Shown here one piece after another: positions 1,398 to 64,000 of a stretch of DNA of 64,000 bases. A program made the position numbers and the translations under genes. The stretch comes from Leptogorgia sarmentosa (taxonomy: Eukaryota): the NCBI GenBank assembly GCA_964658305.1, contig OZ210885.1, positions 3,162,001 through 3,226,000 of the forward strand. Reading direction: 5' to 3'. The notes beneath the pieces are model-generated. The model made no database searches. It had not been told where the DNA came from and saw nothing but the letters and a program-made list of their open reading frames with translations. Each line of letters opens with the position of its first letter. Within the stretch, counting starts at the first letter, position 1.

Positions 1398-4300
1398 GAA
1401 ACCAAGCACTTCGCCCATCAAACTTGATCTCAAGTCACAACGTTGATCTTTTGGCAGAATGTCATCTTCATTGTGTAAATGCAAGCAATTGCTACGGTTA
1501 AAACTTCAGAGTCAGACCTAGCAGTATTTATACAACCAACTGCCAGTTGAGTAACAGCTCCGTGAAAATGAACATGACAAAGATGAGGAATGGAGCTTGG
1601 CATTTCTACGAGGATGTTTTGGTAAGAATAATATAACCAGCAAATGATCCTATATTCCACGAAAATTTGGCCTTCATTGAACTCATCGCTGAACAATTCT
1701 CTTACCGTAAATTTTGTCACCCTATAGGTTACCAAAGGTAAGCGAAAATTATGAATTAATGCAGAGTCGTTCAATACAGGTAAAAGCATAAATAAATACA
1801 TGCATAAACTTTCTACGTATATATATTGAAAGATGAGACAAGATTCAACTTTTCAAGCAAAGGATCTTCTTGGGAGGATAGTTGTCAATGCTAAGTTGAA
1901 TTTTGTTTTATCGTTTACATAGTTGACGGAAAATTGATGTACTATAATTTGCTACTGTTCGTTACCCAGGGCCGTCGCTAGAACGTTAATTGGGAGGTGC
2001 ATATTCATATTTTGGCGTTCTGCCGACTGATTTCTTTTGAAATCAGTTGTTTATGAATTAATTTCAAAAGAAATCAGTCGGCAGAACGCCAAAATATGAA
2101 TATGCACCCCCCCAATTAACGTTCTAGCGACGGCCCTGTCGTTACCTATACTGGTCACATACGTATATCAAAATTATTCTGTAGCTAAATGTCGGCCGAG
2201 GTTACAAGTCCTTATTATGAGAATATTCAACATTCCTACTAAACCAAACATTTTAGGAAATAATTTTTGTATTGCTAAAGGATATATTGCATATATTGGT
2301 AATGAGGGGGCGGTGCCCCCATCCCAATTCAGCTTCAGCCCCCTCCCGCCCCCCCCCCCCTCCATCCCCCACAAAAAGAAATCCTGGTAAAAATCACGAT
2401 ATTTTAATTATTTCAGACATTGACGAATGTGCTCAGGATAGTCGCACATGTCATCCCAATGCAACATGTATCAACACTCCAGGTTCTTACGACTGTCAGT
2501 GTAGAAGTGGATACACTGGAAATGGCCGCACTTGCGCAGGTATTGCTCATGATGCTTGTCATAAAAATGTAATCAGTTGCAATACTTATTTATTTATTAA
2601 CTTTGCCAGATTTGAACAACGTTAACTCAAAAACTGGCAGGGCCTTCGCAACAGCTTGCGCCAATTACTGCGATCCCTAAATGTTAGACAAATACACTAT
2701 ATACGTACATAGAAAGAATTAATTACTAACGAACTATCAGATGCAACTTTTCACATTGCGACCCGCAGAACCACTTCCATTTAGGAAGCAGTCTGGATTA
2801 GAAGACGTTCAAACCTTCACGATCCTAAACCTATTGCAACGTTTACAAATAATCCAAGTTACTTTCAGACAATCAGACCATATTGACTTGAATTGCTCCA
2901 GCTTTCGTTATCATGTTGCAGATATTGACGAATGTCTGGACAAGTCCAATCATTGCCACTCAAATGCAAACTGCACAAATACTGACGGTTCATACAAATG
3001 TAAATGCTCTCAAGGTTACCGAGGAAATGGACAGAATTGTACAGGTAAATATCAGGACAACTTTTGTTTTGTTGAAGGGCGCTTCAGATAAAATTTGGGC
3101 CCAGGGGAAAGTAAACATGGGGAATGTGAAGTGTGAAGTTTCGGTACAAACTTAATGCTGCCGGTCTACAAACGTTTTGGAATTGTACTACGCAATCATT
3201 TGCAGTATCAGTGGCATTGTGATAATTATATTGCCATCGTGTAGATAACGGATAGTAACATCAACAACTAACAAAACTTCTAGTCTGTACTACTTTAATG
3301 ATATAAACAGATTTGACGTTCGAACAAAGGTCCACTGTCGGAAGTAATTACAGTCTGAAGGGGGGGGGGGGGGGGTACAGTCTTAAGGGAAGGGGGGGGG
3401 GGTGTTCAAGGTAAAGAATTTAATTACGTGCACGTTATCCACAATAGTTTTGCCAATGAGCCTTCAATAAGTATAAGTAACATCATAAGTAACATCAATG
3501 GTCACAAACGTTTATTTATCTTCTATCTTCTAGTATTTTTTACTGTTACTTCGTTCATTAAAATTTATTTCTCCTTTCTGGGGCCTTTTTTCCCCATTGA
3601 AGGCTCTGTTTAACAATTTAACTTCACACATTTTGTTTCACTTCGTCATTTGCTGCCAGAAATTTGTGAAACAGAGAAAAATCAATTTGGACGTTACTAT
3701 TATTTTTTAATTTTTCAGACATTGACGAATGTTCTGAAGGCAGCCATGGCTGTCACGCTGACGCAACCTGTGTCAACACTCCAGGATCATACAATTGCAC
3801 ATGTCCCAGTGGGGCATATATTGGCAGAAACAAATATTGCCAGAATCTCAAAGGTGATTTATTGTTTAGTGAGATTATTCAAGTTTCTTCGGTCAATGGT
3901 TATAAGCTAGAGTCTGGAGATGTGTTTCCATGTCTGGAAGAAACGTTAAATTCCTTTATCGTTAAATCATAGTTTAATAATAATAATGACAATAATATAT
4001 TAAATTTATATTCCCTCAGTCGTGTCAGCGATATTGAAAAATGAACCAAACGAATTCGAGAATAAGTTGAGAGAATGGTTGCCAAGAACAGGAAATTGGA
4101 GAGTTTGTTGGCGAGCAACACGAGATCGTTGGGCTGCGAGTACATTCCATTCAAATTGTGATGGAAAATTACCGACCTTAACTATTGTTCAAGTCATCAA
4201 AAACAGGACAAAGTTTGTTTTCGGCGGTTATGCTACAGTATCATGGAACCGCTATCACAGTTGTAAGTTTGAACTATGATTATAAGAGTTATAACCATGT

Positions 4301-5436
4301 ATATATCAGGTTCTTCTCTTCGCTCCATCTTAACTGACTCTTACTTTTATTAATTGGATTTGTTACCTGCATGGTCCGGCAATGACTACAATTATTGTGA
4401 TCGATTTGTTGATCAAATTGGACAAAAAACACGATAAAAATCTGCAAACGTTTGACTCAGGCTTCGAGGTGGAAAATCTGAATGCGTAATCATGCATTTT
4501 GACATTTTGTTTAAATCCCGGCGGTATATACATAAATGATAGTGCCATGTAGAATAAAAAAAATTGCCAGACTGCCTGTATATATACCATGCTACCGTTC
4601 TGTCTTTTAAACAATATGTAGATGTCCAGTTAAATTTTCAATATAATATGAACCACCAGACTTTTTAACTTTGGTTTACAGGGACTTTTCACAATTTCAA
4701 TTTTATGCCTGAATGAGATATAGCAGGGAGATTAGTTAAAATCTGGCCTCGTATAAAGGAGTTGCCATCTGAAATGGGATTCGAGTAATTAAATACGCGT
4801 ATTATTAGTAGGTGGTTTTCCACCAATGTGCTCATGTTTAGCCTACGTGACACAATGTTAATTTAACTCTTTATACTGGACCGATGTTAATTTAACAATT
4901 TATACACCAAATTTACTCATTATGGAGAGAAAATTAAATCTTCATCAAGGAGTTAAGGTCGTTTTATTTCTCCCACTCACACTGGCACCGCCCGCTCGAA
5001 ATTTTCGGGATTGCTTTGAAACTGATGATCTTTATCACGAATGAAATACCCGATTACTAAGAGACAGAGCAGTAATCATATCTGACCCAGGATTGTTGTG
5101 TTTATTTTGACAGATGGTCATTATAAATCTGCTCCAGGATCATTTTTGTTTTCTCTGCGCAATAACGATGACCTTCCACCATTCAAGGCTCCGATGAAAA
5201 ACAAGAATTACGTGCGTGCAATTTACCGTCACAATGGATATGGACCAACATTTGGTGGTGGTCACGACTTGTACATTGCCAACAATGCGAAAATAAACAC
5301 TTACTCCCACACGAATTTTGGTCACACCTACCAAGCTCCATCTGAATACACTTACGGCCAAGCCAACACATACTCCCTCTTGGCAGGAAGCTATAAATTC
5401 ACTCCATCAGAAGTCGAAGTCTTGTATCTAAATTAA
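1398..5436 (+). pseudogene. Copy 1 of PAN-cbEGF(x3)-TLDc gene; exon 1 lies upstream of the window; premature stop in the PAN exon
   Basis: Exons with GT-AG boundaries: 1398-1621 (PAN-like), 1728-1737 (microexon), 2417-2539, 2922-3044, 3719-3853 (cbEGF, DIDEC...), 4020-4262 and 5114-5436 (TLDc: [24 protein letters not shown] / [20 protein letters not shown]). TAA at 1499-1501 where the other copies have TAT. Bases 1-1397 match intron 1 of copy 5. Confidence 0.75.
1967..2138. mobile_element. 172-bp palindromic MITE with 8-bp TSD (hAT-type)
   Basis: Ends CAGGGCCGTCGCTAGAACG...CGTTCTAGCGACGGCCCTG; nearly the whole element is an inverted repeat. TCGTTACC is duplicated at 1959-1966 and 2139-2146. 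Copies 2 and 3 show the empty site (ctgttcgttacctatac). Confidence 0.93.
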
Positions 5437-10039: not shown

Positions 10040-10077
10040 TATAAAAGTAGCCCAGCATACTACGATTTCATTCAGAC
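10040..10077 (+). promoter_or_regulatory. TATA box plus initiator-like motif of copy 2
   Basis: TATAAAA at 10040-10046 with TCATTCAGAC about 30 nt downstream, about 90 nt before the ATG. The same TATA is at 20889, 31211 and 53945. Confidence 0.65.
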
Positions 10078-10133: not shown

Positions 10134-13100
10134 ATGAATTTTCTGGCATTGTTAATGGTGATGTTTCCGATGTCCATTGCACTGAAACCTGTTTCCAAAG
10201 ACGGAAAGACATGTTCTTGGAGACATTTCAAGAACGCCAGCTTGGGTAACTATTTTTTATATTAATTTGGGTTACAATTTTCATGTACACTCCACTTCGA
10301 GTTGAGCTGGCGCGTCATATCTTAACAGCCAAATTGTATTTGTATAGCATGCATAGGCATATAGCCTATTTCAGTTTAAACTCACTGATATATAATTTAT
10401 CATGATATGCGTGAATATCCGTCTAGATCGTTATCCGTTAGTTATGCTTGCCTCTACAGGCACTGCAGTTTAATGTTTGCATGCTGGAACCACATAAATT
10501 TTTGTTTCATGTGAAAGGCATATGATTTTTTATCCATGCACCTGCGATCGGTTGTACAAAGCGAGCTGAGGTCAGTAAGGTGCTGGCTCAATTGCTAGGG
10601 ACCTAAGTTTTTCAATTCCATCATTCAAGGCCATATCCTGGCTGTAATTTAATTTTTGGGATTTTCGGTTTTGCGGATTTGGTCAATTTTAGGACGATTT
10701 TTCGATTTTTGTGTCAAATAACTGCGGTTTTTCGGTTTCGGTAATTCTCCCGCGGTTTACGGTTTTTAAAGGTTTTAGCAGTCGGTTTTCGGTTTTCAAT
10801 TGAAATACTCATGGCCTTTCGGATTTGGTCTGGAATGTAATTTTCGGTTTCTATACCAGTCTGTTTACTTGGAAACTTCATAGAAAACTATTAATGATCT
10901 ACAGAAAATTTCTGAAGAAACATTTCTAAATTTTAAAGCAAATTGTTGGAGAATTTGCTCCGAAATTAAAGTTAACCCAGGGTTAAACTAACCGGCTTTT
11001 GAACAAAATCGGCCCCTGATTGCAAACAGATAGGGGCGGCTAAGTCACATGGCATCGGTGCAATTGTATTGAAAATTGATTCAGGCTAAACATTTATATA
11101 TATCTAAAGATCACAGAGAGGAGGCAAAGTACGAACGATTTATTAATTATTCTTATATCGGATCGCTTTGTTAGTTGCGTTACTATTTAACGTGTTGAAC
11201 AATACTATGAACTGTTGCATATGACTTGCATTGGTTAATGTATGTTAGTTACCTTTAGTTTTTTGCTATTATTCCGAACTCGCACGACTGATGAACATTG
11301 AATATAGTTTGAAATAAAACATCTGTCATTACTATTCCGCGCTATTCAACTGAAATCATCGAAGTTCCAAACTCCTGAAGCCTCTCAGGCGCGCTAAGTC
11401 ACCCCCCCCCCCCCCCCCCCCCCCCCGTAAGTCCAAGAATTGAAATCCAGATCTACAAAGGCCTAAACTCAAGATTGGCGCTTCCAGCAAACCGCTAACC
11501 GAAAGGGGCCAACTTCAAATCGTATTTTAAAGTAAGTTCTTCGGCAGGAAAGTGGATTATTCACGCTTAAATTTTCATTTACAAACCACCCCAACTTCGG
11601 ACAACGAACAGTTGATATTAATGTGCGAGAATTGAAGTTTGCCGTTTGCGGTTAACGTCAATCTAAAGTGCCTAATGTCAGTTTCACACTTTGTGTTTGT
11701 GTTCTTCGACAGGAAACCAAGCACTTCGTCCATCAAACTTGATCTCAAGTCACAACGTTGATCTTTTGGTAGAATGTCATCTTCATTGCGTAAATGCAGG
11801 CAATTGCTACGGTTATAACTTCAGAGTCAGACCTAGCAGTATTTATACAACCAACTGCCAGTTGAGTAACAGCTCCGTGAAAATGAACATGACCAAGATG
11901 AGGAATGGACCTTGGAATTTCTACGAGGATGTTTTGGTAAGAATAATATAACCAGCAAATGATCCTATATTCCACGAAAATTCGGGCCTCATTGAACTCA
12001 TCGCTGTACAATTCTCTTACCGTAAATTTTGTCACCCTATAGGTTACCAAAGGTAAGCGAAAATTATGAATTAATGCAGAGTCGTTCAATACAGGTAAAC
12101 GCATAAATAAATACATGCATAAACTTTCTACGTATATATTGAAAGATGAGACAAGATTCAACTTTTCAAGCAAAGGATCTTCTTGGGAGGATAGTTGTCA
12201 ATGCTAAGTTGAATTTTGTTTTATCGTTTACATAGTTGACGGAAAATTGATGTACTATAATTTGCTACTGTTCGTTACCTATACTGGTCACATACGTATA
12301 TCAAAATTATTCTGTAGCTAAATGTCGGCCGAGGTTACAAGTCCTTATTATGAGAATATTCAACATTCCTACTAAACCAAACATTTTAGGAAATAATTTT
12401 TGTATTGCTAAAGGATATATTGCATATATTGGTAATGAGGGGGCGGTGCCCCCATCCCAAGTTCAGCTTCAGCCCCTCCCGCCCCCCCCCCCCCCCTCCA
12501 CCCCCACAAAAAGAAATCCTGGTAAAAATCACGATATTTTAATTATTTCAGACATTGACGAATGTGCTCAGGATAGTCGCACATGTCATCCCAATGCAAC
12601 ATGTATCAACACTCCAGGTTCTTACGAGTGTCAGTGTAGAAGTGGATACACTGGAAATGGCCGCACTTGCGCAGGTATTGCTCATGATGCTTGTCATAAA
12701 AATGTAACCAGTTGCAATACTTATTTATTTATTAACTTTGCCAGATTTGAACAACGTTAACTCAAAAACTGGCAGGGCCTTCGCAACAGCTTGCGCCAAT
12801 TACTGCGATCCCTAAATGTTAGACAAATACACTATATACGTACATAGAAAGAATTAATTACTAACGAACTATCAGATGCAACTTTTCACATTGCGACCCG
12901 CAGAACCACTTCCATTTAGGTTGCAGTCTGGATTAGAAGACGTTCAAACCTTCACGATCCTAAACCTATTGCAACGTTTACAAATAATCCAAGTTACTTT
13001 CAGACAATCAGACCACATTGACTTGAATTGCTCCAGTTTTCGTTATCATGTTGCAGATATTGACGAATGTCTGGACAAGTCCAATCATTGCCACTCAAAT

Positions 13101-16091
13101 GCAAACTGCACAAATGCTGACGGTTCATACAAATGTAAATGCTCTCAAGGTTACCGAGGAAATGGACAGAATTGTACAGGTAAATATCAGGACAACTTTT
13201 GTTTTGTTGAAGGGCGCTTCAGATAAAATTTGGGCCCAGGAGAAAGTAAACTTGGGGAATGTGAAGTGTGAAGTTTCGGCACAAACTTAATGCTGCCGGT
13301 CTACAAACGTTTTGGAATTGTACTACGCAATCATTTGCAGTATCAGTGGCATTGTGATAATTATATTGCCATCGTGTAGATAACGGATAGCAACATCAAC
13401 AACTAACAAAAGTTCTAGTCTGTACTACTTAAATGATATAAACAGATTTGACGTTCGAGCAAAGGTCCACTGTCGGAAGTAATTACAGTCTAAAGGGGGG
13501 GGGGGGGTACAGTCTAAAGGGAAGGGGGGGGTGTTCAAGGTAAAGAATTTAATTACGTGCACGTTATCCACAATAGTTTTGCCAATGAGCCTTCAATAAG
13601 TATAAGTAACATCATAAGTAACATCAATGGTCACAAACGTTTATTTATCTTCTATCTTCTAGTATTTTTTACTGTTACTTCGTTCATTAAAATTTATTTC
13701 TCCTTTCTGGGGCCTTTTTTCCCCATTGAAGGCTCTGTTTAACAATTTAACTTCACACATTTTGTTTCACTTCGTCATTTGCTGCCAGAAATTTGTGAAA
13801 CAGAGAAAAATCAATTTGGACGTTACTATTATTTTTTAATTTTTCAGACATTGACGAATGTTCTGAAGGCAGCCATGGCTGTCACGCTGACGCAACCTGT
13901 GTCAACACTCCAGGATCATACAATTGCACATGTCCCAGTGGGGCATATATTGGCAGAAACAAATATTGCCAGAATCTCAAAGGTGATTTATTGTTTAGTG
14001 AGATTATTCAAGTTTCTTCGGTCAATGGTTATAAGCTAGAGTCTGGAGATGTGTTTCCATGTCTGGAAGGAACGTTAAATTCCTTTATCGTTAAATCATA
14101 GTTTAATAATAATAATGACAATAATATATTAAATTTATATTCCCTCAGTCGTGTCAGCGATATTGAAAAATGAACCAAACGAATTCGAGAATAAGTTGAG
14201 AGAATGGTTGCCAAGAACAGGAAATTGGAGAGTTTGTTGGCGAGCAACACGAGATCGTTGGGCTGCGAGTACATTCCATTCAAATTGTGATGGAAAATTA
14301 CCGACCTTAACTATTGTTCAAGTCAACAAAAACAGCAAAAAGTTTGTTTTCGGTGGTTATGCTACAGTATCATGGAAGCAGGGTATCTACCACAGCACCT
14401 GTAAGTTTGAAATGATTACAGTTATAAGAGTTATTATTTTAATCATGCATGTATCAGGTTCTTCTCTTCGCTCCATCTTAACTGACTCTTACTTTTATTA
14501 ATTGGATTTGTTACCTGCATGGTCCGGCAATGACTACAATTATTGTGATACAAACATTTGTTGATCAAATTGGACAAAAACACGATAAAAATCTGCAAAC
14601 TTTTGACTCAGGCTTCAAGGTGGAAAATCTGAATGCGTAATCATGCGTTTTGACATTTTGTTTAAATCCTGGCGGTATATACATAAATGCAGCCGTTGAA
14701 CAAAGACCTCAACGGGTAGTACCCAATATTTCTCAATTGAGAACACGGGTAATGCCCACGCTGGACTATCGCCTAAGCTTGCTGGTCGGCGTTTCAGTAT
14801 TACTCTTGATATAGTTATATAGTGTTAGATATAAACCATTTTTCTATATACTAAGAATTTCCTTAATCCCAACCCAAACCCTAGAATCCTAACCCTGACC
14901 ATTGTGGTCATAAAAATATTGAGAAAAAAAAGTTTTCATCACCAACGCTGAAAAAATGTGTCGTACTGGGGTTTGAACTATAGAACTGCAACGCACGCAC
15001 CGCGTGCCTTACCACTTGAGCTAAATCGAGCTCGCTGCTCAACACTCTGGCCTGGATAAATGCATATGATTATAGACCCGGGCAATCACTGTTCATAACT
15101 TACCTGGCCAGGCTACTTAGACGATAGTCCAGCGTGGGCATTACCCATGTTCTCAATTGAGAAATATCGGGTACTACCCGTTGAGGTCTTTGTTTAACGG
15201 GTGATCAATGATAGTGCCATGTAGAATAAAATAAATTGCCAGACTGCCATTATATACCACGATACCGTTCTGTCTTTTAAACATTATGTAGATGTCCAGT
15301 TAAATTTTCAATATAATATGAACCACCAGACTTTTTAACTTTGGTTTACAGGGACTTTTCACAATTTCAATTTTATGCCTGAATGAGATAGCAGGGAGGG
15401 GCTTCGTATAAAAGGAGTGCCATCTGAAATGGGATTCGAGTAATTAAATACGCGTATAATTAGTAGGTGGTTTTCCACCAATGTGTTCATGTTTAGCCTA
15501 CGTGGCACAATGTTAATTTAACTCTTTATACTGGACCGGTGTTAATTTAACAATTTATACACCAAATTTACTCATTATGGAGAGAAAATTAAATCTTCAT
15601 TCAGGAGTTACGGTCGTTTTATTTCTCCCATCCACACTGGCACCGCCCGCTCGAAAATTTCTGAATTGCTTTGAAACTGATGATCTTTATCACGACAAAA
15701 ATACCCGATTACTAAGAGACAGAGCAGTAATCATATCTGACCCAGGATTGTTGTGTTTATTTTGACAGATGCTCATTGGTCATCTGCTCCAGGATCATTT
15801 TTGTTTTCTCTGCGCAATAACGATGACCTTCCACCATTCAAGGCTCCGATGAAAAACAAGAATTACGTGCGTGCAATTTACCGTCACAATGGATATGGAC
15901 CAACATTTGGTGGTGGTCACGACTTGCACATTGCCAACGATGCGAAATCAAACACCAACTCCTACACGAGGTTTGGTCGCACCTACCAAGCTCCATCTGG
16001 ATACACTTACGACCAACCCATGACACAATCCCTCCTGGCAGGAAGCTATACCTTCACTCCATCAGAAGTCGAAGTCTTGTATCTAAATTAA
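10134..16091 (+). CDS. Copy 2: secreted PAN/apple-like + 3 cbEGF + TLDc protein, about 433 aa, intact
   Basis: Exons 10134-10245 ([18 protein letters not shown] signal-peptide-like), 11713-11936, 12043-12052, 12552-12674, 13057-13179, 13848-13982, 14149-14400, 15769-16091. All introns are GT-AG, phases are compatible, and the total is 1302 nt with no internal stop seen. Confidence 0.88.
10657..10855. repeat. CGGTTT-rich repeat in intron 1, probably a transposon subterminal fragment
   Basis: Multiple (T)CGGTTT motifs; homologous blocks at about 21508-21700, 33025-33220 and 55813-56010. No intact termini were recognised. Confidence 0.4.
14690..15203. mobile_element. 514-bp non-autonomous TIR element (about 90-bp imperfect TIRs, 7-bp TSD) in the last intron of copy 2
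   Basis: CAGCCGTTGAACAAAGACCTCAACGGGTAGTACCC... versus ...GGGTACTACCCGTTGAGGTCTTTGTTTAACGGGTG. Flanks are ATAAATG and ATCAATG. Copy 1 has the empty site (acataaatgatagtgcc). Confidence 0.9.
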
Positions 16092-46500: not shown

Positions 46501-49500
46501 TCAGAAGTGCAGAAGTTTCGCGACACTGAACTTGCTGCCGGTCTACAAACGTTTAGGAAATTAGACTAAACAATCATTTGAGAACAGCGATTCTATTTTA
46601 AAACAACTTTGCTATATTTCATTTAAATTCGCTTCCTCTGCCGCGTTACATTATTCAGACGAATTGTGAAGTGATGTATGTAACTTCTCAATTTATTCAC
46701 AAAAGCAATAATAACGCGCGTTTAACAAAAAAAAGAGCGGTTTCTTTTGGTATCGTATGCTAATATATTATGGGCACTTTAATATAGTGCTGTGCTCTGA
46801 CAAGTACATATAGTATTAAAGCAGGGACGTAAATATCGAAGATGGCTGGGGTGAGGTGTTCATGAAAATCAGACCGACCAATTGCTGATATGCGAATTTA
46901 GACCGACTACAGCTAAAACTAGTTAATACTACCAATAACTGTTTTTTTACGAAAAATATACAATGTATTTTATAGTTGTGATATAACGGGCTGTAGTTTG
47001 TAGCAACGGTTAAAGAGGTGTAGCCATCCAAGATATTCGGTCGGTCTCATCAAGTAATTGTTTATGATTTATTTTCAGACTGAGTCTAATCAATTTTGAG
47101 ACCGACTATAACATTTTATTGGCGGGAGGGGGTATGTTTCACCCCCCCCCCCCCCCCCTCACACCCCACCACCACAGTTACGCCCCAGAGCTCATATGCG
47201 CAGTCTTGCTACGGAACGAAGCTGAATTAGAATATTATAATTTTTCTTGTTAATTCATTCATTCAAATTTACTTCTCCATTCTGAAACTTTTTCCCATTT
47301 GAAGTATACGATATGTTTTTCGGTGATCAAGTACGCGCAAATACGTTAATATTTTTATTCATGTATGAGAAACTGCTTGGACATTACCGTTTTAGACAGT
47401 CATTTATTTGCGATCTAGTTCCATAAGTTTTATTCAAACAGGTCATGAAATTAGTTGATCACTGTATGCTCGCTTGTCAGCAATTCCTTTTTCTTCCATG
47501 GATGTTTCTTATAGTTTTTCAGTTGTTAACGAATCTATGATTCTTGTAGCTAATTATGGTGAAGCATCGAGCAGTTCAATAAAGAGCAGAAATATAAAAT
47601 AATTTAGACAAGATCTAGAAACAAAATATATAACTTCGTAAGATCTTATTTAATTTGTTTAACTTCGTCATTTGTTTCTAGAAGTTTGTTAAACTGAAAA
47701 ATTTATGACTTTCTTATTTTTAATTTTTCAGACATTGACGAATGTTCTGAAGGCAGCCATGGCTGTCACGCTGACGCAACCTGTAACAACACTCAAGGAT
47801 CATACAGTTGCACGTGTCCCAGTGGAAAATATTGCCACAACATCAAAGGTGATTTATGTTTTAGTGAGATTAACATGTATTCAAGTTTCTTTGGGTCAAT
47901 TGTTAAGAGTGTGGAAATGTGTTTCCATGTCTGGAAGGAACGTTAAATTGTTTTATCGAATGTTCATTTTTCTCTAAACAAAATAATTAGTTTAATAATA
48001 ATAATGACAATAATAATAATCATATATTACTATATACCTTACTATATATGCCTGACTGAAATTGTTCGGTTAAATTTATATTCACTCAGACGTGTCCGAG
48101 ATATTGGAAAATGAACCAGTAGAATTCGAGAATAAGTTGGGAGAATGGTTGCCGAAAACAGGAAATTGGAGCATATGTTGGAGAGCAACACGAGATGGTT
48201 GGGCTGCGAGTACATTTCATTCAAATTGTGATGGGAAATTACCGACCATAACTATCGTTCAAGTCATCAAAAACAGCAAAAAGTTTGTTTTCGGCGGTTA
48301 TGCTACAGTATCATGGAGGAGCTACTACAACTGTAAGTTTGAAATGATTACAGTTATATGAGTTATTATTTTAATCATGTATTAGGTTGTTATAATCTTA
48401 TCTTCGCTCCATCTTAACTGACTCTTACTTTTATTAATTGGATTTGTTACCTGCATGGTCCGGCAATGAATAAAATTATTGTGATACAGAGATTTGTTGA
48501 TGAAATTGGACAAAAACACGATAAAAATCTGCCAAAAGTTTGTCTCAGGCTTCAAGGTGAAAAATCTGAATGCGTTATCATGCATGTTGATACATGCATG
48601 ACATTTTGCTTAAATCCCGGCGTTATTTATGAACGTACAGTCTGCAGTGCCCTGTAGTATAAAATAAATTGCCAGTATATATACCATGATACCGTTCTGT
48701 CTTTAAACATGCAGCTATAGATGTCCAGGTAAATTTACAACTTCAATAATATGAACCAGCATACTTTTTAACTTTGGTTTACAGGGACTTTTCATAATTT
48801 CAATTTTATGCCTGAATGAGATAGCAGGGAGATTAGTTAAAATCTGGCCTCGTATAAAAGGAGTGGCATCTGAAATGGGATTCGAGTAATTAAATACGCG
48901 TATAATTAGTAGGTGGTTTTCCACCAATGTGTTCACGTTTAGCCTATACGTGGCTGCCACGACGTGGCACAATGTTAATTTAACTCTTTATACTGGACCG
49001 GTGTTAATTTAACAATTTATCACATCAAATTTACTCATTATGGAGAAAAAATTAAATCTTCATTCAGGAGTTAAGGTCGTTTTATTTCTCCCATCCACAC
49101 TGGCACCGCCCGCTCGAAATTTTCTGAATTGCTTTGAAACTGATGATCTTTATCACGACTGAAATACCCGATTACTAAGAGACAGAGCTGTATATCATAT
49201 CTGACCCAGGATTGTTGTGTTTATTTTGACAGATAATCAATGGTCATCTGCTCCAGGATCATTTTTGTTTTCTCTGCGCAACAAAGATGACCTTCCACCA
49301 TTCAAGGCTCCGCTGAAAAGCGTGAACAGCGGGCACGCACTTTGCTGGCGCAGTACACATGGACCAACATTTGGTGGTGGTCACGACTTGTACATTGCCA
49401 ACGATGCGAAATCAAACACCAACTCCTACACGCATTTTGGTCACACCTACCAAGCTCCATCTGGATACACTTACGACCAAACCAACACACGATCCCTCCT

Positions 49501-49555
49501 GGCAGGAAGCTATTACTTCACTCCATCAGAAGTCGAAGTCTTGTATCTAAATTAA
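43532..49555 (+). CDS. Copy 5: secreted PAN-cbEGF(x3)-TLDc protein with a divergent (type B) signal exon, about 423 aa, intact
   Basis: Exons 43532-43640 ([19 protein letters not shown]; an in-frame upstream ATG lies at 43511), 45155-45378, 45543-45552, 45989-46111, 46271-46393, 47732-47848, 48090-48332, 49233-49555. Total 1272 nt, GT-AG throughout, no stop seen. Confidence 0.88.
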
Positions 49556-54030: not shown

Positions 54031-57000
54031 ATGAATTTTCTGGCATTGTTAATGGTGATGTTTCCGATGTCCATTGCACTGAAACCTGTTTCCAAAGACA
54101 GAAAGACATGTGCTTGGAGACATTTCAAGAACGCCAGCTTGGGTAACTATTTTTTATATTAATTTGGGTCACGTTAGTCAATTTTCATGTACACTCCACT
54201 TCGAGTTGAGCTGGCGCGTCATATCTTAACAGCCAAATTGTATTTGTATAGCATGCATGGGCATATAGCCTATTTCAGTTTAAACTCACTGTTATAATTT
54301 ATCATGATATGCGTGAATATTCGTCTAGATCGTTATCCGTTAGTCATGCTTGCCTCTACAGGCACTGCAGTTGCATGGTGGAATCACATAAATTTTTGTT
54401 TCATGTGAAAGGCATATGATTTCTTTATCCATGCACCTGCGATCGGTTGTACAAAGCGAGCTGAGGTCAGTAAGGTGCTGGCTCAATTGCTAGGGACCTA
54501 AGTTTTTCAATTCCATCATTCTCGCCAAGGCCATATCTTGGCTGAAATTTAATTTTTGCACTTTTCATTGCTAATGATATATCTCCTGCATGAAAACTAA
54601 GCATGCAATGGGCAAGAAACACGAATCTTATAGATGTAGAATTTAAAAGAGCAATTTATAGGACTGATACAGCTTCACTCAGTATAAATTACCAGGGCCG
54701 CCCAGAGAAATTTGGCGTCCAGGGACAAAATTTCACTTTGGGCCCTGGAAATTCTATCTTGTAGTAGCACAAGTCGTTAAGTCACAATCATGCACTCTGA
54801 GAGGGTATTCGAGCTTATATATTTGTTATGTATTCCATTTTATTTTTAATGGGGGGGGGTCTTTGCCCCCTCTGGGCGGCCGTGTAACTTACTATTCGAC
54901 ACACTGCATCTGTTTCTCAAAAATCGAACGTTTTAAAACTGGATTATATTTTAGAACAGTCGCCTCGATATTCGTATCTTTTATTTTCATATATAATTTT
55001 TATTACATACATGCAGTACTTCGAGGGCAAACAGACTTTGCATGCATAGTCTGTAATTATAACTCGAGATAATTTCGGCGTCGGTTCTACAAATAAAATA
55101 AACCTTAATAACATTTGATCTCTTGTCAGTCACACATTGTGAGTTTGGATTTTATGCCATGGTATCTTCAGTTGAAGGAACATTTATGCGGGCAGTAATA
55201 CTTGTTGCTTATTTTGAGGTTATAATATTTGCCATTAATGCATGGGCTTTGTGCAACTGGGCGCAGGTTATAACAGCAAGGGACAAGCCAATACACTAGG
55301 CTTTAATATTAGCCGTCATCCTCGGGATGGCTTGTGTGTATATAGGGCATGCATCCTTTTTGTCTGTTCGTACCTCTTTTAGCTTAAACAGTTGATATAT
55401 TTTCATATATATAACAATTAAGTAACGAGGCCGCGTTATCTATTTATGAGTGTATAGATAGTCAATTAAGTCCAAGTAAATGAGTGATAAAACCTAAGCA
55501 TGCAAAAATTTCATTTGAAGCTAAAAAGACACTCTGAAAATGAGGCTATAAGGTATAATCTAGGAAACAAGAGCACTCTTAAGCGCGCAAAATATTTTGA
55601 TTTTAAAGGCTCGGTTACGATTAAATGACTATGAGCAATTATATGATTTGAATAATGTATAGCTTGCAATGTAAACAAAATTAATATGTGCTCAATGCTC
55701 ATGCATGCAGCAATTTCGTGTATCTTAGCGTTATATTTTTCGCAAAAATCCTTGATAATTATATGCCATTCAAATTTGGTCTCTTACAATTAGTGGGGGG
55801 GGGGAGGGGCGTTGGGATTTTCGGTTTTTTGGATTTGGTCAATTTTTAGGTCGATTTTTCGAGTTTTGTGTCAAATAACTGCGGTTTTTCGGTTTCGGTA
55901 ATTTCCCCCGGTTTATATGGTTTTTAAAGGTTTTAGCAGTCGGTTTTCGGTTGTCAATTGAAATACTCATGGCCTTTCGGATTTGGTCTGGAATGTAATT
56001 TTCGGTTTCCATACCAGTCTGTTTGCTTGGAAACTTCATAGAAAACTATTAATGATCTACAGAAAATTTCTGAAGAAACATTTCTAAATTTTAAAACAAA
56101 TTGTTGGAGAATTTGCTCTGAAATTAAAGTTAACCCAGGGTTAAACTAACCGGCTTTTGAACAAAATCGGCCCCTGATTGAACAGATAGGGGCGGCTAAG
56201 TCACATGGCATCGGTGCAATTGTATTGAAAATTGATTCAGGCTAAACATTTATATATATCTAAAGATCACACAGAGGAGGCAAAGTACGAACGATTTATT
56301 AATTATTCTTATATCGGATCGCTTTGTTAGTTGCGTTACTATTTAACGTGTTGAACAATACTATGAACTGTTGCATATGACTTGCATTGTGTAATGTATG
56401 TTAGTTACCTTTAGTTTTTTGCTATTATTCCGAACTCGCACGACTGATGAACATTGAATATAGTTTGAAATAAAACATCTGTTATTACTATCTCCGCGCT
56501 ATTCAACTGAAATCAGCGAAGTTCGAAACTCCCGAAGCCTCTCGCGCTAAGTCAACCCCCCCCCTGTAGGTCCAAGAATTGAAACTCAGGATCTGCAAAG
56601 CCCTAAACTCAAGATTGACGCTTCCAGCAAACCGCTAACCAAAAGGGGCAAACTTCAAATCGTATTTTAAAGTAAGTTCTTCGGCAGGAAAGTGGATTAT
56701 TCACGCTTAAATTTTCATTTACAAACCACCCCAACTTCGGACAACGAACAGTTGATATCAATGTGCGAGAATTGAAGTTTGCCGTTTGGGGTTAACGCCA
56801 ATCTAAAGTGCCTAATGTCAGTTTCACACTTTGTGTTTCTGTTCTTTGACAGGAAACCAAGCACTTCGTCCATCAAACTTGATCTCAAGTCACAACGTTG
56901 ATCTTTTGGCAGAATGTCATCTTCATTGTGTAAATGCAAGCAATTGTTACGGTTATAACTTCAGAGTCAGACCTAGCAGTGTTTATACAGTTAACTGCCA

Positions 57001-60000
57001 GTTGAGTAACAGCTCCGTGAAAATGAACATGACAAAGATGAGAAATGGATCTTGGATTTTCTACGAGGATGTTTTGGTAAGAATAAACATAATCCTGAAT
57101 TGTGAGGGATTTGTACAGGGATAATTTCGGCATTACCAAATGATTCTATATTCGAGGAAAATTCTACGTCTATAAAACGGCCTCCGCGTTGAACTCGTCG
57201 CTGCACGATTTTCTTACCGTAAATTTTGTCACCCCATAGGTCACTAAAGGTAAGCAAAAATTATGAATTGATGCAGAGTCGTTCAATACAGGTAAACGCA
57301 TAAATAAATACATGCATAAACTTTCTACGTATATATTGAAAGATGAGACAACATTCAACTTTTCAAGCAAAGGATCTTCTTGGGAGGGAGGATAGTTGTC
57401 AATGCTAAGTTGAATTTTGTTTTATCGTTTAGACAGTGGACGGAATCTTGATGTAGGCTACTATAATCCTATTGTTTACTACCTATGCTATATACGTACC
57501 TAAAAATTGTTATTTATTATCATAAGACTTAGTGTTATATAGAATGCTTTGGTCTGAACAGCCTTTGTTTCTTCAGCTTTGTCCTTGGACTTGCATGTAA
57601 CTTTTGACTGCCTAAGTTTGGCAAGGACCTATTAGCACAGTCGAATTGGAAAATTTTCACGATATTAATTTTGATTATTTCAGACAATGATGAATGTTCT
57701 CAGGAAAGTCACAAATGTCATTTCAATGCAACATGTATCAACACTCCAGGTTCTTACGACTGTCAGTGTAGAAGTGGATACACTGGAAATGGCCGCACTT
57801 GCACAGGTAAATACGTCGCCATTCTTTTCTTCCATATTCAACTTAATAGGGAATGTGGGACCTCTCAGGCGCGTTTTTTACCATTCTTTTAATTATTTCA
57901 GACGTTGACGAATGCTCTCAGGATAGTCACACATGTCATTTCAATGCAACATGTATGAACACTCCAGGTTCTTACGACTGTCAGTGTAGAAGTGGATACA
58001 CTGGAAATGGTCAATCTTGCGCAGGTACATGATATTTGTGATAAAAATTGTAACTAGTAGCATTGCTAATGGTGCATATAGGTAGGATGCGCTATTGCAA
58101 CGTTTACATTTACTTTCAGACAATCAGACCACATCAACTTGAATTAGATTAATGAGCTCGTTCATTTTGTCATTATGTTACAGATATTGACGAATGTCGG
58201 GACAATTCCACACATTGGGACTCAAATGCAATCTGTACAAATACTGACGGTTCATACAAATGTAAATGCTCTCAAGGTTACCGAGGAAATGGACAGAATT
58301 GTACAGGTAAATATCGAAACTGTATAATGGTAGCAATCTACAGGCAGGGCGCTTCAGATAAAATTTGGGCCCAGGAGAAAGTAAACTTGGGGACTGCATG
58401 TGAAGTCAGAAGTGTGAAGTTTCGCGACACTGATTTGCTGCCGGTCTACAAACGCCTTGGAAATTAGACTAAACAATCATTTGAGAACAGCGATTCTATT
58501 TTAAAACAACTTAGCTATATAAATTTCATTTAAATTGCCTTTTGCTAGCGCTTCCTCTGTCGCGTTACATTATTCAGACGAATTGTAAAGTGATGTATGA
58601 TGTAACTTCTCAATTTATTCCCTAAAGCAGTAATAACGCGCGTTTAACAAAAAAAGAGCGGTTTCTTTTGGTATCGTATGCTAATATATTATGAGCACTT
58701 TAATATAGTGCTGTGCACTGACAAGTACATATAGTATTAAAGCAGGGACGTAAATATCAAAGATGGCAGGGGTGAGGTATTCATGAAAATCAGACCGACC
58801 AATTGCTGAGATGCGAATTTAGACCGACTACAGCTAAAACCAGTTAATACTACCAATAACTGTTTTTTGCGAAAAATATATATACAATGTATTTTATAGT
58901 TGTGATGTAACGGTTTGTAGTTTGTAGCAACGGTTAAAGCGGTGTAGCCATCCAAAGATATTCGGTCGTTCTCATCAAGTACCTTTAATTGTTTATGATT
59001 TATTTTCAGACTAAGTCTAATCAATTTTTAGACCGACTATACCATATTACTGGCGGGAGGGGGTATGTTTCACCCCCCCCCCCTCCCTCACACCCCACCA
59101 CCACAGTTACGCCCCAGAGCTCATATGCGCAGTCTTGCTACGGAACGAAGCTAATACGAGCATGCATGCGTCATTAGTATTGTGTACTTGTTTACATCTT
59201 AATATCATTATATGAATTGGAATATTATAATTTTTCTTGTTAATTCATTCATTCAAATTTATTTCTCCATTCTGGAACTTTTTCCCATTTGAAGTATACG
59301 ATATGTATTTCGGTGATCAAGGCCGCGCAAATACGTTGATATTTTTATTCATGTATGAGAAACTGTTTGGACATTAAGGAAATCTAACTTTCGTTAGCTT
59401 TTTAGACAGTCATTTATTTGCGATCTAGTTCCATAAATTTTATTCAAACAGGTCATGAAATTAGTTGATCACTGTATGCTCGCTTGTCAGCAATCCCTTT
59501 TTCTTCCATGGATGTTTCTTATAGTTATTCAATTGTTAACGAATCTATGATTCTTGCAGCTAATTATGGTGAAGCATCGAGCAGTACAATAAAGAGCAGA
59601 AATATAAAATAATTTAGACAAGATCTAGAAACAAAATAAATAACTTCGTAAGATTTTATTTAATTTGTTTAACTTCGTCATTTGTTTCAAGAAATTTGTT
59701 AAACTGAAAAATTTATGACTTTCTTATTTTTAATTTTTCAGACATTGACGAATGTTCTGAAGGCAGCCATGGCTGTCACGCTGACGCAACCTGTAACAAC
59801 ACTCAAGGATCATACAATTGCACGTGTCCCAGTGGAAAATATTGCAAGAACATCAAAGGTGATTTATTTTGTAGTGAGATTAATATGTATTCAAGTTTCT
59901 TTGGTCAACTGTTAAGAGTATGGAGATGTGTTTCCATGTGTGCAAGGAACGTTAAATTCCTTTATCGAATGTTAATTTTTGTCTAAACAAAATAATTAGT

Positions 60001-63000
60001 TTAATAATAATAATAATCAGCATTGATTTTCTATATTCCTGTCTGACATTGTTTGGGTAAATTTATATTCACTCAGGCGTGTCAGGGATATTGAAAAATG
60101 AACCAAACGAATTCGAAAAGAAATTGGAAGAATGGGTGCCGAAAACAGGAGATTGGAGTATTTGTTGGCGAGCAACGCGAGATGGTTGGGCTGCGAGTAC
60201 ATTTCATTCAAATTGTGATGGAAAATCACCAACCATAACTATCGTTCAAGTTATCAAAAACAGCAAAAAGTTTGTTTTCGGCGGTTATGCTACAGTGCCA
60301 TGGGGGAGCTCCAGTAAGTTTGAAATGATTACAGTTATGTGAGTTATTATTTTAATCATGTATTAGGTTCTTATAATCTTCTCTTCGCTCCATCTTAACT
60401 GACTCTTACTGAACGACTATTTCATTAATTGGATTTGTTACCTGCATGGTCCGGCAATGACTACAATTATTGTGATACAAACATTTGTTGATCAAATTTG
60501 ACCAAAACACGATAAGAATCTGCTAAAAGTTTGTCTCAGGCTTCAAGGTGAAAAATCTGAATGCGTCATCATGCATTTTGATGCATGCATGACATTTTGT
60601 TTAAATCCTGGCGTTATTTATGAATGTACAGTCTACAGTGTCCTGTAGTATAAAATAAATTGCCAGTATATATACCATGATACCGTTCTGTCTTTAAACA
60701 TGCAGCTATAGATGTCCAGGTAAATTTAAAACTTCAATAATAATGAACCAGCATACTTTTTCTATCTGCGAACGCAGATACTATGCTATGACCCTGTTAG
60801 CTGTTAGCTGTTAGCTGTTAGCTGTTAGCTGTTAGCTGTTAGCTTCTAGCCAATCAGCGACGAGCTTTTGCTTATAATTACGTAATGCAAGATGGCGGCG
60901 TTCGAGGAGTGAAGGCGATGTGCGATCGGATTTTTGCGAAAATGTGAAGTGCAGTGTTTAAGTACGACGGTTTAAGCAAACAATCTTGACTTTGCAGGTC
61001 CCTGTCAATGTGCAGTTGTAATTTAACAAAGGATTTAAAACGGCAGCGTGCTGTTTTAGTTGTCGGCCTTTCGGTTTGTAAATTAAAAATGCGTACAGAG
61101 CACACTGTCCAGATGGCCGACCCATGAACAGTGAACTCAAATAAAACTGGAACGCTAGCTGGGCGGGAAATTTTGAAGCCAATATGGCGGAAATTGAAGC
61201 TCGTCTTGTAGGTATGATCCAGGCCCCTGCGCGGATTATCCGCGGATTATCGCCATGCTTTCACCCTTCGTGACTACCCTACGCAAAAAACACGCGTGTT
61301 TTATACCTACAAGAGAGGCTTCAATTTCCGCCATCTTGGCTTCAGGCATGTATGGGCATGTTTACCTGCAGCTAGCGTTCCAGTTTTATTTTGAGTTCAC
61401 TGCCCATGAACGGTTTTGTCACAGCACGCTAAATAAAAACTGGATACATTCTGTTGAAGTAGCCTGTTCGCAGGTTAAATCTAATCATATTCAAGATGGC
61501 GGTAAAAATTGAAATAAGGCCAAAACGATATAATTAAATAATTTAATGTCATTTACATGTAATATTAGGTAATCCCACGATATTCAGTATAAAACCATAG
61601 TTTTATGCATATTGGAGGCACAAAGAAAGTTTTTTCCCAAGGAATTTCCTCGTATTTTTCACGAAAGAGTCGAAGGAGGAAGGTGAGAAATGCTGTATAT
61701 GAGAACAGTCAACCAGGGGCGGATCCAGGGGTAGTCAAAGCGATCACGCGACTAACGTAAAAAATGCAGTTTATGAAATTTTTTCTCATCTATTATTCTA
61801 GTGCGAAAATGCGGTCCAGTTTAAAATTTCGTCCAGTTGCACATTAATCTTTTATCTTGTGTCAGTACAAGTGAACAGCGGCCTAGCGCGTGAGTTTTGA
61901 TCGGTCACATGTCAAATTCGCGCAATCCGATTGGCCATTTCGTAGTTCTCCATGGCGACCCAGGTTTTGATCGATCTAGAGGTTGGTCTGATCGATCTAG
62001 GGGCATGTTGGGGGTGTGTTAGAGCTCATACAAGCCACTCAATTGGCTAATTCAAAATAGTATCTTCATTCCCATTGGTTGTAATTTCTTGATCGATCAT
62101 GACCGATCAGACGTTCAGAGAGCTGGTCTCGTATTAGCGCCTTTTCGATACTGTGAGCCTTGAACGCGAAGGAGAGAATACAGCGAGTATTTCACAATGT
62201 CTTGTGATATTTTCGAGAGTGTACGCTTGGCGTTTCAGCAAAACGACCAAGTCTCCCCTCAAAATATTATGACGATTTAAAACGCGAGGTTGAAGCGAGA
62301 AGAGGTCCATCGGTCGAAGAGTTGTTGAGCGCGATTATATAAACAACATAAACATGTGCCTCAGGCGAAGCTATAGTGCTGAATCGTTCATCCCCAAATC
62401 TGCTCGAGAAGGGAAAGACAAGATCTGTACTGCAATAAGGTCAAGATATTAGTATTATTTGTTTATTATAATGCTGGTTTATGTCTTTCTCATGTTAATA
62501 AATACTAAATAGCGTCTATACATTTCTCGCGTTACGCGTCTTGCTTGCGGCAGCCGGCAAGACTTGATATATTACTATTAGGTAGTCAAGCATTAAAGTA
62601 TAATGTAACAAATAAATAACAAGCATTAGTATAATATTATAAGGTTGGCAAGTAAACAATAATATGATGGCTCGCTACCGCCTAAAACAAGGCGAAAAAA
62701 TCAACGTCTCGCCAACAAACTTCGCTAAAAAATAGCAGCCCCTACTTCTAGGATAGTATTACTAAATATGTACAACGTTTTTTGGCAACAAAACGAGTGA
62801 AAAAGTCGAAAAAATACGAAAAGTTTCTCTTAATTTGCCGTGTCTCGATGCTGGATGCCTGTTGCCGTGCAAAAATTGCCGTTTGAAATAACGAATACGC
62901 GATCCTATTGGTGGGCTGTTATGTCGGTTTATTTATAACCAATAGGATCGCGTATTCGTCATTTGAAACGGCAATTTTTGCACGGCAACAGGCATCCAGC

Positions 63001-64000
63001 ATCGAGACACGGCAAATTGAAAGAAACTTTTCGTATTTTTTCGACTTTTTCACATGTTTTGTTGCCTGAAAACGTTGTACATATTTAGTAATACTATCCT
63101 AGAAGTAGGGGCTGCTATTTTTTAGCGAAGTTTGTTGGCGAGACGTTGATTTTTTCGCCTTGTTTTAGGCGGTAGCGAGCCATCATATTATTGTTTACTT
63201 GCCAACCTTATAATATTATACTAATGAATACTACGTCATGCGTGCGTTGGGCTACCTATGCTAAGGTACGAAAAATCCTGGATCCGCCCCTGCAGTCAAC
63301 ACTAACTAAACATCGCATATTTAATAACACAGCATGCTGATTTAGGAAATCTGTTTGAGGATACATGTGCGCTTTGCGAACCTATTTTTAACTTTGGTTT
63401 ACATATGCCTGAACGAGATAGCAGGGAGCCAAGGAGGTTAATTAAAATCTGGCTTCGTATAAAAGGAGTGCCATCTGAAATGGGATTCGAGTAATTAAAT
63501 ACGTACGCGTATTATTAGTAGGTGGTTTTCCACCAATGTGTTCATGTTTAGCCTACGTGGCACAATGTTGATTTAACTCTTTATACTGGATCGATGTTAA
63601 TTTAACAATTTATACACCAAATTTACTCATTATGGAGAGAAAATTAAATCTTCATTCAGGAGTTAAGGTCGTTTTATTTCTCCCATCCACACTGGCACCG
63701 CCCGCTCAAATTTTTTTGGATTGCTTTGAAACTGATGATCTTTATCACGACTGAAATACCCGATTACTAAGAGACAGAGCTGTAATCACATCTGACCCAG
63801 GATTGTTGTGTTTATTTTGACAGGTGATCATACATCTGCTCCAGGATCATTTTTGTTCTCTCTGCGCAATAACGATGACCTTGCACCTTTCAAGGCTCCG
63901 CTGAAAGACCAGAATAACGGGTATGCAATTTACCGCCACAGTGGATATGGACCAACATTTTGTGGTGGTTGCGACTTGGTCATTGCCGACGATGCGAATT
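54031..64000 (+). CDS. Copy 6: PAN-cbEGF(x4)-TLDc paralog, 3' end runs off the window
   Basis: Exons 54031-54142, 56853-57076, 57240-57249, 57684-57806, 57902-58024, 58184-58306, 59742-59858, 60077-60313, and 63824 to the window edge ([51 protein letters not shown]). The frame is open to the edge. Confidence 0.82.
54693..54884. mobile_element. Same MITE at the equivalent site in intron 1 of copy 6
   Basis: Homologous to 31948-32140, with the same TIRs and flanks. Confidence 0.75.
60794..60842 (+). repeat. (CTGTTAG)7 microsatellite
   Basis: Seven perfect 7-mers read directly. Confidence 0.97.
61129..61402. mobile_element. 274-bp MITE with 8-bp TSD, nested in the Helentron-like element
   Basis: TIR CAGTGAACTCAAATAAAACTGGAACGCTAGCTG with its inverted copy ending at 61402; TSD CCCATGAA at 61121-61128 and 61403-61410. 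Confidence 0.9.
61714..63292. mobile_element. 1579-bp non-autonomous hAT-type element, nested
   Basis: Perfect 16-bp TIR CAGGGGCGGATCCAGG / CCTGGATCCGCCCCTG; TSD CAGTCAAC at 61706-61713 and 63293-63300. Confidence 0.93.
62624..63226. repeat. Long foldback palindrome (289-bp arms, 25-nt spacer)
   Basis: 62624-62912 is the near-perfect reverse complement of 62938-63226, with only a few mismatches. Confidence 0.95.

Follow-up and report, generated by a model that had tools for sequence, protein, structure and literature searches.

What is a TLDc domain doing at the end of a protein that appears to be built for secretion, and why does it vary from one neighbouring gene copy to the next? These questions are raised by a stretch of the Leptogorgia sarmentosa genome (assembly GCA_964658305.1, contig OZ210885.1, positions 3,162,001 to 3,226,000 of the forward strand), which we analysed as one window of 64,000 nucleotides (nt). 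A repeat search showed that this AT-rich window (GC 0.36-0.40) contains six head-to-tail copies of one gene, all on the + strand, with a start-to-start spacing of 10,315-11,698 nt. Six in-frame exon models bear out the same number, as had been claimed in the original prediction, which was made from the letters alone. The gene encodes a PAN/apple-like domain, three or four cbEGF modules and a C-terminal TLDc domain. Our tentative answer, to which we give slightly less than an even chance, is that the array encodes secreted PAN-EGF-TLDc proteins in which the C-terminal half of TLDc is the diversified ligand-binding head of a soluble recognition protein.

Gene models were predicted from splice signals, reading phase and relatives. 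The joined models are open frames of 424-464 amino acids (aa), with AG/GT signals at every junction save the exon-1 donor of copy 3. The order per copy is a signal-peptide exon, a PAN/apple-like exon, a 10-nt micro-exon, three (copies 1, 2, 3 and 5) or four (copies 4 and 6) cbEGF exons and two TLDc exons. Copy 2, in which we saw no lesion, spans 10134..16091 on the + strand, with exon 1 at 10134-10245, PAN at 11713-11936, the micro-exon at 12043-12052, EGF exons at 12552-12674, 13057-13179 and 13848-13982, and TLDc exons at 14149-14400 and 15769-16091. The EGF exons are 117-135 nt each, with canonical splice sites and phase-1 introns on both sides. Because every EGF exon is symmetric in phase, a damaged EGF module could in principle be skipped without breaking the frame. 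All coding-length differences between copies are multiples of three, and none of the six coding sequences is frameshifted.

The junction between the PAN and EGF exons depends on the micro-exon. The PAN exon ends in phase 0 at TTTTG/GTAAGA (slashes mark exon borders), which is mismatched to the phase-1 EGF acceptor. The micro-exon, ATAG/GTYACYAAAG/GTAAGC, bridges PAN to the first EGF exon in all six copies, with synonymous differences only. It codes for V-T-K plus the first base of an Asp codon, and its product agrees with the V-T-T link (...EDVL-VTT-DIDEC...) of P0002, a 325-aa protein predicted from a 2,139-nt contig. Since tblastn shows P0002 to be unbroken across positions that are split into separate exons in the window, we take it to be transcript-derived. 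Two other ways of joining the exons were rejected: a downstream GTGAGG donor for the PAN exon, which exists only in copies 4-6 and would replace a conserved Asp, and a longer EGF exon. The micro-exon resolves the phase.

Exon 1, encoding the predicted signal peptide, is located 1.5-2.7 kb ahead of PAN and is visible in copies 2-6 only. A scan for an ATG-led hydrophobic peptide ending at a phase-1 donor found a candidate that is conserved in copies 2, 3, 4 and 6, and a diverged form of it in copy 5. Since copies 1 and 5 share 99% identity in their 5' flanks, we place exon 1 of copy 1 before base 1 of the window. In-frame ATGs just upstream of PAN in copies 1 and 5 were rejected as starts, as they lead no signal-like peptide and are out of frame in the other copies. 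The start of the array had originally been put at position 1398. Copy 1 is indeed visible from there, but this position is the start of its PAN exon and not of the gene. A TATA-like box lies 70-94 nt before the ATG in all five visible first exons, and AATAAA follows the stop codon in all five complete copies.

We determined the domain content by running Pfam on the open frames of the copy 2 exons. TLD scored 36.9 and 30.5 bits on two separate exons, against a cut-off of 24.5, and EGF_CA matched three exons (E-values of 7e-11 to 9e-12). PAN_1 remained just below its cut-off of 21.4 on the PAN exon alone (21.0 bits, E-value of 3e-4). The PAN-like C-x3-C...C...N...C core has four cysteines and one Asn that are invariant across 15 family members. 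The AlphaFold2 model of the PAN exon is of low confidence (predicted local distance difference test, pLDDT, of 55), and its top Foldseek rows, to factor XI and kallikrein apple domains, reached E-values of 0.4-0.9 only. The cbEGF (PF07645) consensus D-x-D/N-E-C...C-x-D/N-x4-F/Y-x-C-x-C was found in 18 of the 20 modules; the two failures carry Cys-to-Trp changes and belong to copies 4 and 6.

The fold was tested on an AlphaFold2 model of P0002, built with 55 relatives, as a stand-in for the spliced protein of the window. Compared with the window copies, P0002 has an identity of 66-69% in the last exon and 76-83% in the first TLDc exon; its TLD (PF07534) score is 73.7 bits and its model has a mean pLDDT of 86.9. 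The C-terminal domain of the model matched NCOA7-AS (7obp, template modelling (TM) score of 0.83), zebrafish OXR2 (4acj, 0.80) and Skywalker (6r82, 0.72) in Foldseek, with target-normalised scores for single-domain chains. The model also matched 8ar6, with a TM score in this same range of 0.72-0.83, and the mEAK7 TLDc in V-ATPase complexes, and a sequence profile search of the PDB recovered the same TLDc proteins as the fold search. The proposed TLDc identity is thus confirmed by Pfam scores above the cut-off on both exons and by the match to solved TLDc structures. For the stalk, the closest structural matches were EGF modules of NELL, Notch, EMR2, uromodulin and fibrillin.

The proteins are hydrophobic at the N-terminus only, where the Kyte-Doolittle 19-residue mean is 1.58-1.81 compared to at most 0.68 beyond residue 30. 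Small residues precede the likely signal cut site, as judged by eye, and the last TLDc strand forms the C-terminal end of the proteins. There are 6-11 N-x-S/T sequons per copy. Because an N-terminal hydrophobic segment is combined with extracellular-type modules and sequons and with no anchor, we predict that the proteins have a cleaved signal peptide, lack a membrane or glycosylphosphatidylinositol anchor and are secreted. The several N-glycosylation sequons noted in the original prediction were found, the lack of a membrane anchor is predicted here as well, and its secreted stalk-and-head layout holds, as a prediction, on the hydrophobic N-terminus and the in-frame exon models. The C-terminal EVLYLN given there needs more detail: copies 1, 2, 3 and 5 end in EVEVLYLN, copy 4 ends in EIEVLYLN, and copy 6 reaches the window edge inside its last exon.

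How does this compare with TLDc proteins of known function? The characterised ones (OXR1, NCOA7, TBC1D24/Skywalker, MEAK7, TLDC2 and yeast Oxr1p/Rtc5p) share PF07534 and the fold of the P0002 model with the array. Framework residues F-H-x-x-C and G-P-x-F-G and the final E-x-E strand are conserved as well, while the identity to solved TLDc structures is only 15-19%. The characterised proteins are cytosolic V-ATPase partners according to PMC8608904, and the intracellular, V-ATPase-binding role that had been given for them agrees with the reviews searched. In contrast, the TLDc domain of the array is predicted to be extracellular, located behind a signal peptide, PAN and EGF modules, and its C-terminal half shows a signal of positive selection. 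No enzymatic activity is known for TLDc, as stated in the 2017 review PMC5614904. A term search of the 2026 review PMC13570293 found no occurrence of extracellular, secreted, signal peptide or EGF, and a search of PMC5614904 found neither extracellular nor secreted.

Amino-acid changes are in excess in the last exon, which encodes the C-terminal half of TLDc and carries the selection signal (copy 2 15769..16091, + strand; equivalents at 5114-5436, 26565-26887, 39691-40013, 49233-49555 and 63824-64000). We used Nei-Gojobori counts for the pairwise comparisons and pooled the nonsynonymous and synonymous per-site differences. The pooled ratio was 0.27 for PAN, 0.63 for EGF, 0.51 for the first TLDc exon and 2.02 for the last exon. 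Here, dN/dS (nonsynonymous over synonymous differences per site) was above 1 in all 15 pairs, including five that involve the incomplete copy 6. Between copies 2 and 3, this last exon has 22 nonsynonymous changes and no synonymous ones. On a tree of the five complete last exons, we counted 88.5 nonsynonymous changes over 248 sites and 13.5 synonymous changes over 73 sites, a ratio of 1.94 (binomial P 0.015; bootstrap 1.12-4.01, with 1% of replicates at or below 1). The corresponding tree-based ratio was 0.26 (0.07-0.78) for PAN, 0.67 for EGF and 0.66 for the first TLDc exon, with both of the latter intervals including 1. The mix of changes in the last exon differed from that in the other exons (Fisher P 0.0014).

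As a control that is independent of codon counting, we compared the last exon with its flanks in copies 1, 2, 3 and 5. Pairwise distances within the exon were 0.069-0.138, compared to 0.013-0.047 for the 300 nt before it and 0.032-0.062 for the 700 nt after it; divergence in the exon is two to three times that of its flanks. At a minimum, 66-69 changes are needed per 320 exon sites versus 80-93 per 935 flanking sites, with P between 2e-6 and 2e-8 for all three topologies. Variable sites fell on codon positions 1, 2 and 3 in numbers of 23, 20 and 12, a reversal of the usual order. Two or more amino-acid changes occurred in 26 codons among the five sequences, with four different residues at some of them. 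A second variable element is the loop ending the first TLDc exon before the donor (copy 2 14370..14400, + strand), whose length varies by whole codons, giving exons of 237, 243 or 252 nt. The diversifying TLDc head that had been proposed is therefore quantified by the last-exon ratio, and is narrower than proposed, being confined to the last exon and the exon-junction loop. Import of sequence from distant paralogues would also be confined to exons. Because the many silent differences expected from such import are not seen, we judged positive selection to be the better reading.

Could the variable positions instead be the tolerant surface of a scaffold, in a structural or adhesive protein of the extracellular matrix or mucus? 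Fibrillin, uromodulin and NELL are among the closest structural matches of the stalk. Moreover, positions that vary within the window are also more variable among 12 hexacoral paralogues (Spearman 0.38, P 2e-7), as tolerant loops would be, although we count this shared pattern in favour of the diversified head too. Still, tolerance would raise the ratio up to 1 and not above it, nor would it let an exon diverge two to three times faster than the adjoining non-coding DNA. We consider a matrix or mucus role distinctly unlikely as the explanation of the variable head.

The other copies differ from copy 2 in their integrity (all coordinates on the + strand). Copy 1 is visible at 1398..5436, with PAN at 1398-1621, the micro-exon at 1728-1737, EGF exons at 2417-2539, 2922-3044 and 3719-3853, and TLDc exons at 4020-4262 and 5114-5436. 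Its junctions all have AG/GT signals, its frame is kept across them and tblastn aligns it to P0002. Its PAN exon contains an in-frame TAA at 1499..1501, where the other five copies have TAT for the Tyr of C-Y-G-Y-N-F. Copy 3 occupies 20983..26887 (exon 1 20983-21094; PAN 22516-22739; micro-exon 22846-22855; EGF 23356-23478, 23861-23983 and 24648-24782; TLDc 24949-25200 and 26565-26887), and its exon-1 splice donor at 21095..21096 is GA, compared to GT in copies 2, 4, 5 and 6. Copy 5 shows no lesion and has the divergent exon 1; it lies at 43532..49555 (exon 1 43532-43640; PAN 45155-45378; micro-exon 45543-45552; EGF 45989-46111, which is a hybrid, 46271-46393 and 47732-47848; TLDc 48090-48332 and 49233-49555).

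Copies 4 and 6 each have four EGF modules. Copy 4 is located at 31297..40013 (exon 1 31297-31408; PAN 34067-34290; micro-exon 34454-34463; EGF 34900-35022, 35118-35240, 35400-35522 and 36978-37094; TLDc 37313-37549 and 39691-40013). Copy 6, at 54031..64000, is cut by the window end (exon 1 54031-54142; PAN 56853-57076; micro-exon 57240-57249; EGF 57684-57806, 57902-58024, 58184-58306 and 59742-59858; TLDc 60077-60313 and from 63824). In copy 4, the second cysteine codon of the third EGF module is changed to Trp (TGC to TGG, 35432..35434), and copy 6 has the same change at 58216-58218. The sequence on either side of the last exon of copy 4 bears no relation to that around the last exons of the other copies, and a G/C-rich repeat extends to the acceptor of this exon. 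This G/C-homopolymer-rich repeat, found at 38306-38889, 40209-40721, 41270-41772 and 42196-42709, occupies the last intron of copy 4, and duplicates of it lie in the spacer that separates copy 4 from copy 5. Substitutions also affect the conserved R-D-G-W motif: copies 1-3 have Arg in place of its Gly, and copy 4 has Leu in place of its Trp. The Gly corresponds to NCOA7 G815, as placed indirectly via the Skywalker alignment and not aligned straight to NCOA7. According to PMC8608904, G815 of NCOA7 is needed for folding and V-ATPase binding.

A decaying remnant would look much like this. The array would then consist mostly of pseudogenes without present function, and the variation of the last exon would stem from relaxed constraint and gene conversion. 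The stop codon of copy 1, the lost exon-1 donor of copy 3, the Cys-to-Trp change in one EGF module of copies 4 and 6, the rearranged flanks around the last exon of copy 4 and the Arg at the conserved Gly of copies 1-3 all fit such decay. Conversely, relaxation predicts a ratio of about 1 in all exons and not the observed series of 0.26 (PAN), 0.67 (EGF), 0.66 (TLDc exon 1) and 1.94 (last exon), and it does not predict a last exon that is more diverged than its own flanks. Moreover, the six coding sequences have no frameshift despite several length differences, and copies 2 and 5 are without visible lesion. We regard decay of the whole array as unlikely.

The relationships between the copies change along the gene. 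Upstream of PAN, copies 1 and 5 are separated from copies 2, 3, 4 and 6, with a between-group identity of 0.40-0.49. In the middle of the gene, copies 1, 2 and 3 group together, as do 4 and 6, with copy 5 by itself, and upstream of the last exon all copies except 4 are alike at 95-99%. The sequence before the first EGF exon of copy 5 matches that before EGF exon 1 of copy 4 at 98% identity, while the sequence after it matches that after EGF exon 2 of copy 4 at 100%; the exon is a hybrid, as expected if unequal crossing-over had produced it. Sites in the last exon support each of the three two-by-two groupings of copies 1, 2, 3 and 5, in interleaved order (6, 5 and 3 sites), which points to short-patch exchange or repeated substitution. 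The birth-and-death turnover that had been suggested for the locus is supported by these mosaic relationships and the hybrid EGF exon, as well as by the stop codon and the lost splice donor.

Such high similarity can also arise if haplotypes or collapsed repeats are laid out as six copies by mistake. Long stretches, 95-100% identical between copies, would be consistent with this. The read-derived contigs that we consulted came from three runs (X1-X3; short contigs, contig depth uninterpretable) of one sample, which is probably the assembly source, and this too counts on the side of an artefact. Against an artefact, there are at least five distinct last exons (the five complete ones differ by 7-14%), the copies differ in EGF number, 5' flanks and intron structures, and two haplotypes cannot yield six forms. 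In addition, contigs of X1-X3 match the last-exon variants of copies 3 and 5: they cover this exon of copy 3 at an identity of 99% or more, and the exons of copy 5 are covered at 100%. We consider an assembly artefact extremely unlikely. At positions 48343 and 49245, contigs of the sample run on into sequence for which the window has no match, even with up to three mismatches allowed. These continuations look like intron-plus-exon sequence of further variants, with other sequences at the variable junction segments. The sample must therefore contain additional members or alleles of the family.

To place the array, we looked at its relatives in other genomes. The nearest protein relatives of the last exon are from soft corals (Xenia and Dendronephthya) and other anthozoans, at 55-68% identity. 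A family search with a profile of three full-length relatives identified 22 named proteins in which TLD occurs together with EGF-type domains. All of these come from anthozoans, namely Dendronephthya, Paramuricea, two Montipora species, Acropora digitifera and Acropora millepora, with many paralogues per genome in Montipora. The nine named non-anthozoan matches to the profile have EGF modules only, according to precomputed Pfam annotation. The anthozoan PAN-like/EGF/TLDc proteins, including Dendronephthya LOC114540535, Acropora millepora LOC114957549 and the Montipora paralogues, have the same order of parts, with one to four EGF modules and a C-terminal TLDc ending in E-V-x-Y-L. They and the array copies are one family. 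Over the last exon, the octocoral protein P0015 is 55% identical to the window and P0037 of Montipora 48%. The relatives are annotated as uncharacterised, "adhesion GPCR E2-like", "fibropellin-1-like" or "slit-like". Two related proteins of about 645 aa with a C-terminal TLDc, P0003 and P0006 (Xenia and Dendronephthya), show weak similarity at the N-terminus to the beginning of the fibrinogen C-terminal domain, at E-values of 2e-4 to 4e-4 and below the cut-off.

TLDc is joined to other extracellular modules as well. Extracellular modules accompany TLD in 24 of the 81 last-exon relatives (EGF in 10, Ig, collagen or Sushi in 13 and H-lectin in one), and intracellular modules do so in 11 (BTB in seven, RING/B-box in two and SAM in two). 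TLDc was the last domain in all 11 anthozoan proteins examined, behind collagen-Ig-Sushi, collagen-Ig, H-lectin/C-lectin/EGF, fn3 or EGF stalks, and one Paramuricea protein combines WAP, pentraxin and laminin-G with TLD. The library-wide TLDc clade has 23,364 representatives at an E-value of 0.001 or less. Of the 150 best library matches, 74 were scanned, and 17 of these carry BTB_2, the commonest named partner, versus two that carry EGF. Extracellular fusions therefore represent a minority use of the fold. Many of the closest library TLDc relatives (P0212-P0352) have 2-8 tandem TLDc domains, in proteins of up to 6,517 aa.

The literature searched contains no mention of four anthozoan locus names and no report of an extracellular TLDc, in cnidarians or anthozoans or elsewhere; supplementary tables of coral proteome and expression papers, in which these genes could appear under different names, were outside the search. 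The novelty that had been proposed for the family therefore stands in part: we found no functional description, but the architecture is already present in public gene predictions from at least seven anthozoan species, where it is uncharacterised or misnamed.

Snail FREPs, VCBPs and sea-urchin Sp185/333 are diversified invertebrate recognition families, and ficolins, collectins and C1q are humoral receptors built as a stalk and a head. The array resembles both groups: its products are likewise predicted to be secreted, are encoded by a clustered multigene family and consist of a stalk and a C-terminal globular head on which variation is focused. Positive selection on the presumed binding domain of such a clustered family is a further similarity to FREPs. 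Conversely, the heads of the known families have folds other than TLDc. In stony corals, TLDc is even found behind collagen-Ig-Sushi stalks, akin to the stalk-and-head receptors. If the array does encode recognition proteins, the EGF modules may form a calcium-stiffened stalk, the PAN domain may tether the protein to a carbohydrate or protein, and the variable TLDc surface may bind shifting targets, for example microbes, symbionts or foreign surfaces of other kinds. New variants could arise by duplication, by unequal crossing-over between EGF exons and by short-patch gene conversion, after which selection would favour amino-acid change in the head, and some members would die.

Microbe or symbiont recognition is only the most economical guess for the putative head, as venom-like, gamete and allorecognition roles would fit the same signals. 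A secreted offensive or competitive factor, be it a venom or directed against predators or neighbours, would have its head in an arms race with targets in other animals. Cnidarian tandem toxin genes are known to evolve rapidly, and a tandem array of predicted secreted proteins under positive selection would conform to this. The protein is however large and multi-domain, and the Pfam and PDB searches revealed no similarity to a known toxin family; we find such a role very unlikely. An equally small probability is given to a self/non-self or gamete recognition protein, with a head diversified for discrimination between individuals or species. Reproductive and allorecognition genes can show this type of selection and multigene mosaic, and both patterns of the array fit. 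The predicted lack of a membrane anchor, and the many paralogues per Montipora genome in place of one highly allelic locus, argue against it.

Several points weigh against a diversified recognition head. The selection test used five to six recombining and partly damaged sequences and counting methods, not a codon-likelihood model, and many of the last-exon changes are clustered, which can inflate the ratio. Sites with three or more states are not clearly concentrated in loops (10 in loops, 8 in strands or helices). With copies 1 and 3 disabled by the stop and the lost donor, and a broken EGF cysteine in copies 4 and 6, the array is partly decaying, and the Arg at the conserved Gly in copies 1-3 adds to this. 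The short contigs of runs X1-X3 contain no exon-exon joints and so lend no support to expression or splicing. The putative immune or recognition role of the array is what we infer from its architecture and its pattern of change. A broader proposal is that the TLDc fold serves anthozoans as an extracellular recognition head, much as fibrinogen, C1q and C-type lectin domains serve other animals, mounted on EGF, collagen-Ig-Sushi, lectin and pentraxin stalks, with the array as an immune-type locus diversified by positive selection and short-patch gene conversion. We regard this as possible, yet clearly on the doubtful side.

Other features were observed in the introns and spacers. In the copy 3 intron between the TLDc exons, the summed depth of read contigs is about 20,000-250,000 at 25491-26141, versus hundreds elsewhere, and one contig each in X2 and X3 skips 25478-26000. 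This pile-up is probably a high-copy mobile element with presence/absence variation. Antisense open frames of 140-150 aa run across the PAN exon and intron of copies 1-3 (1430-1852, 11745-12197 and 22548-23000, - strand). The one checked, 11745-12197, had no match in Pfam, and these are probably chance frames. The spacers between copies 1 and 2, 2 and 3, and 5 and 6 (7642-8646, 18425-19480 and 51871-52927) each contain an internal direct duplication, with copies 705-757 nt apart. An open reading frame (ORF) at 39198-39395 (- strand), initially taken for hAT-transposase-like, was rejected, as Pfam found nothing in it; nine other intron or spacer ORFs likewise had no Pfam match. Rfam gave zero matches in the window.

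To our knowledge, TLDc is an old eukaryotic domain whose sole established role is to bind the cytosolic part of a proton pump. If the array does encode recognition proteins, the domain would have a second, extracellular life that is unrelated to the V-ATPase. A secreted family with TLDc as the fast-evolving tip of a stalk would suggest that the fold has a general ability to bind proteins or glycans. Such proteins are now hidden under misleading names, such as "fibropellin-like" and "adhesion GPCR E2-like". They would add a new candidate class of recognition molecules to coral biology, a field that is short of receptors for microbes and symbionts.

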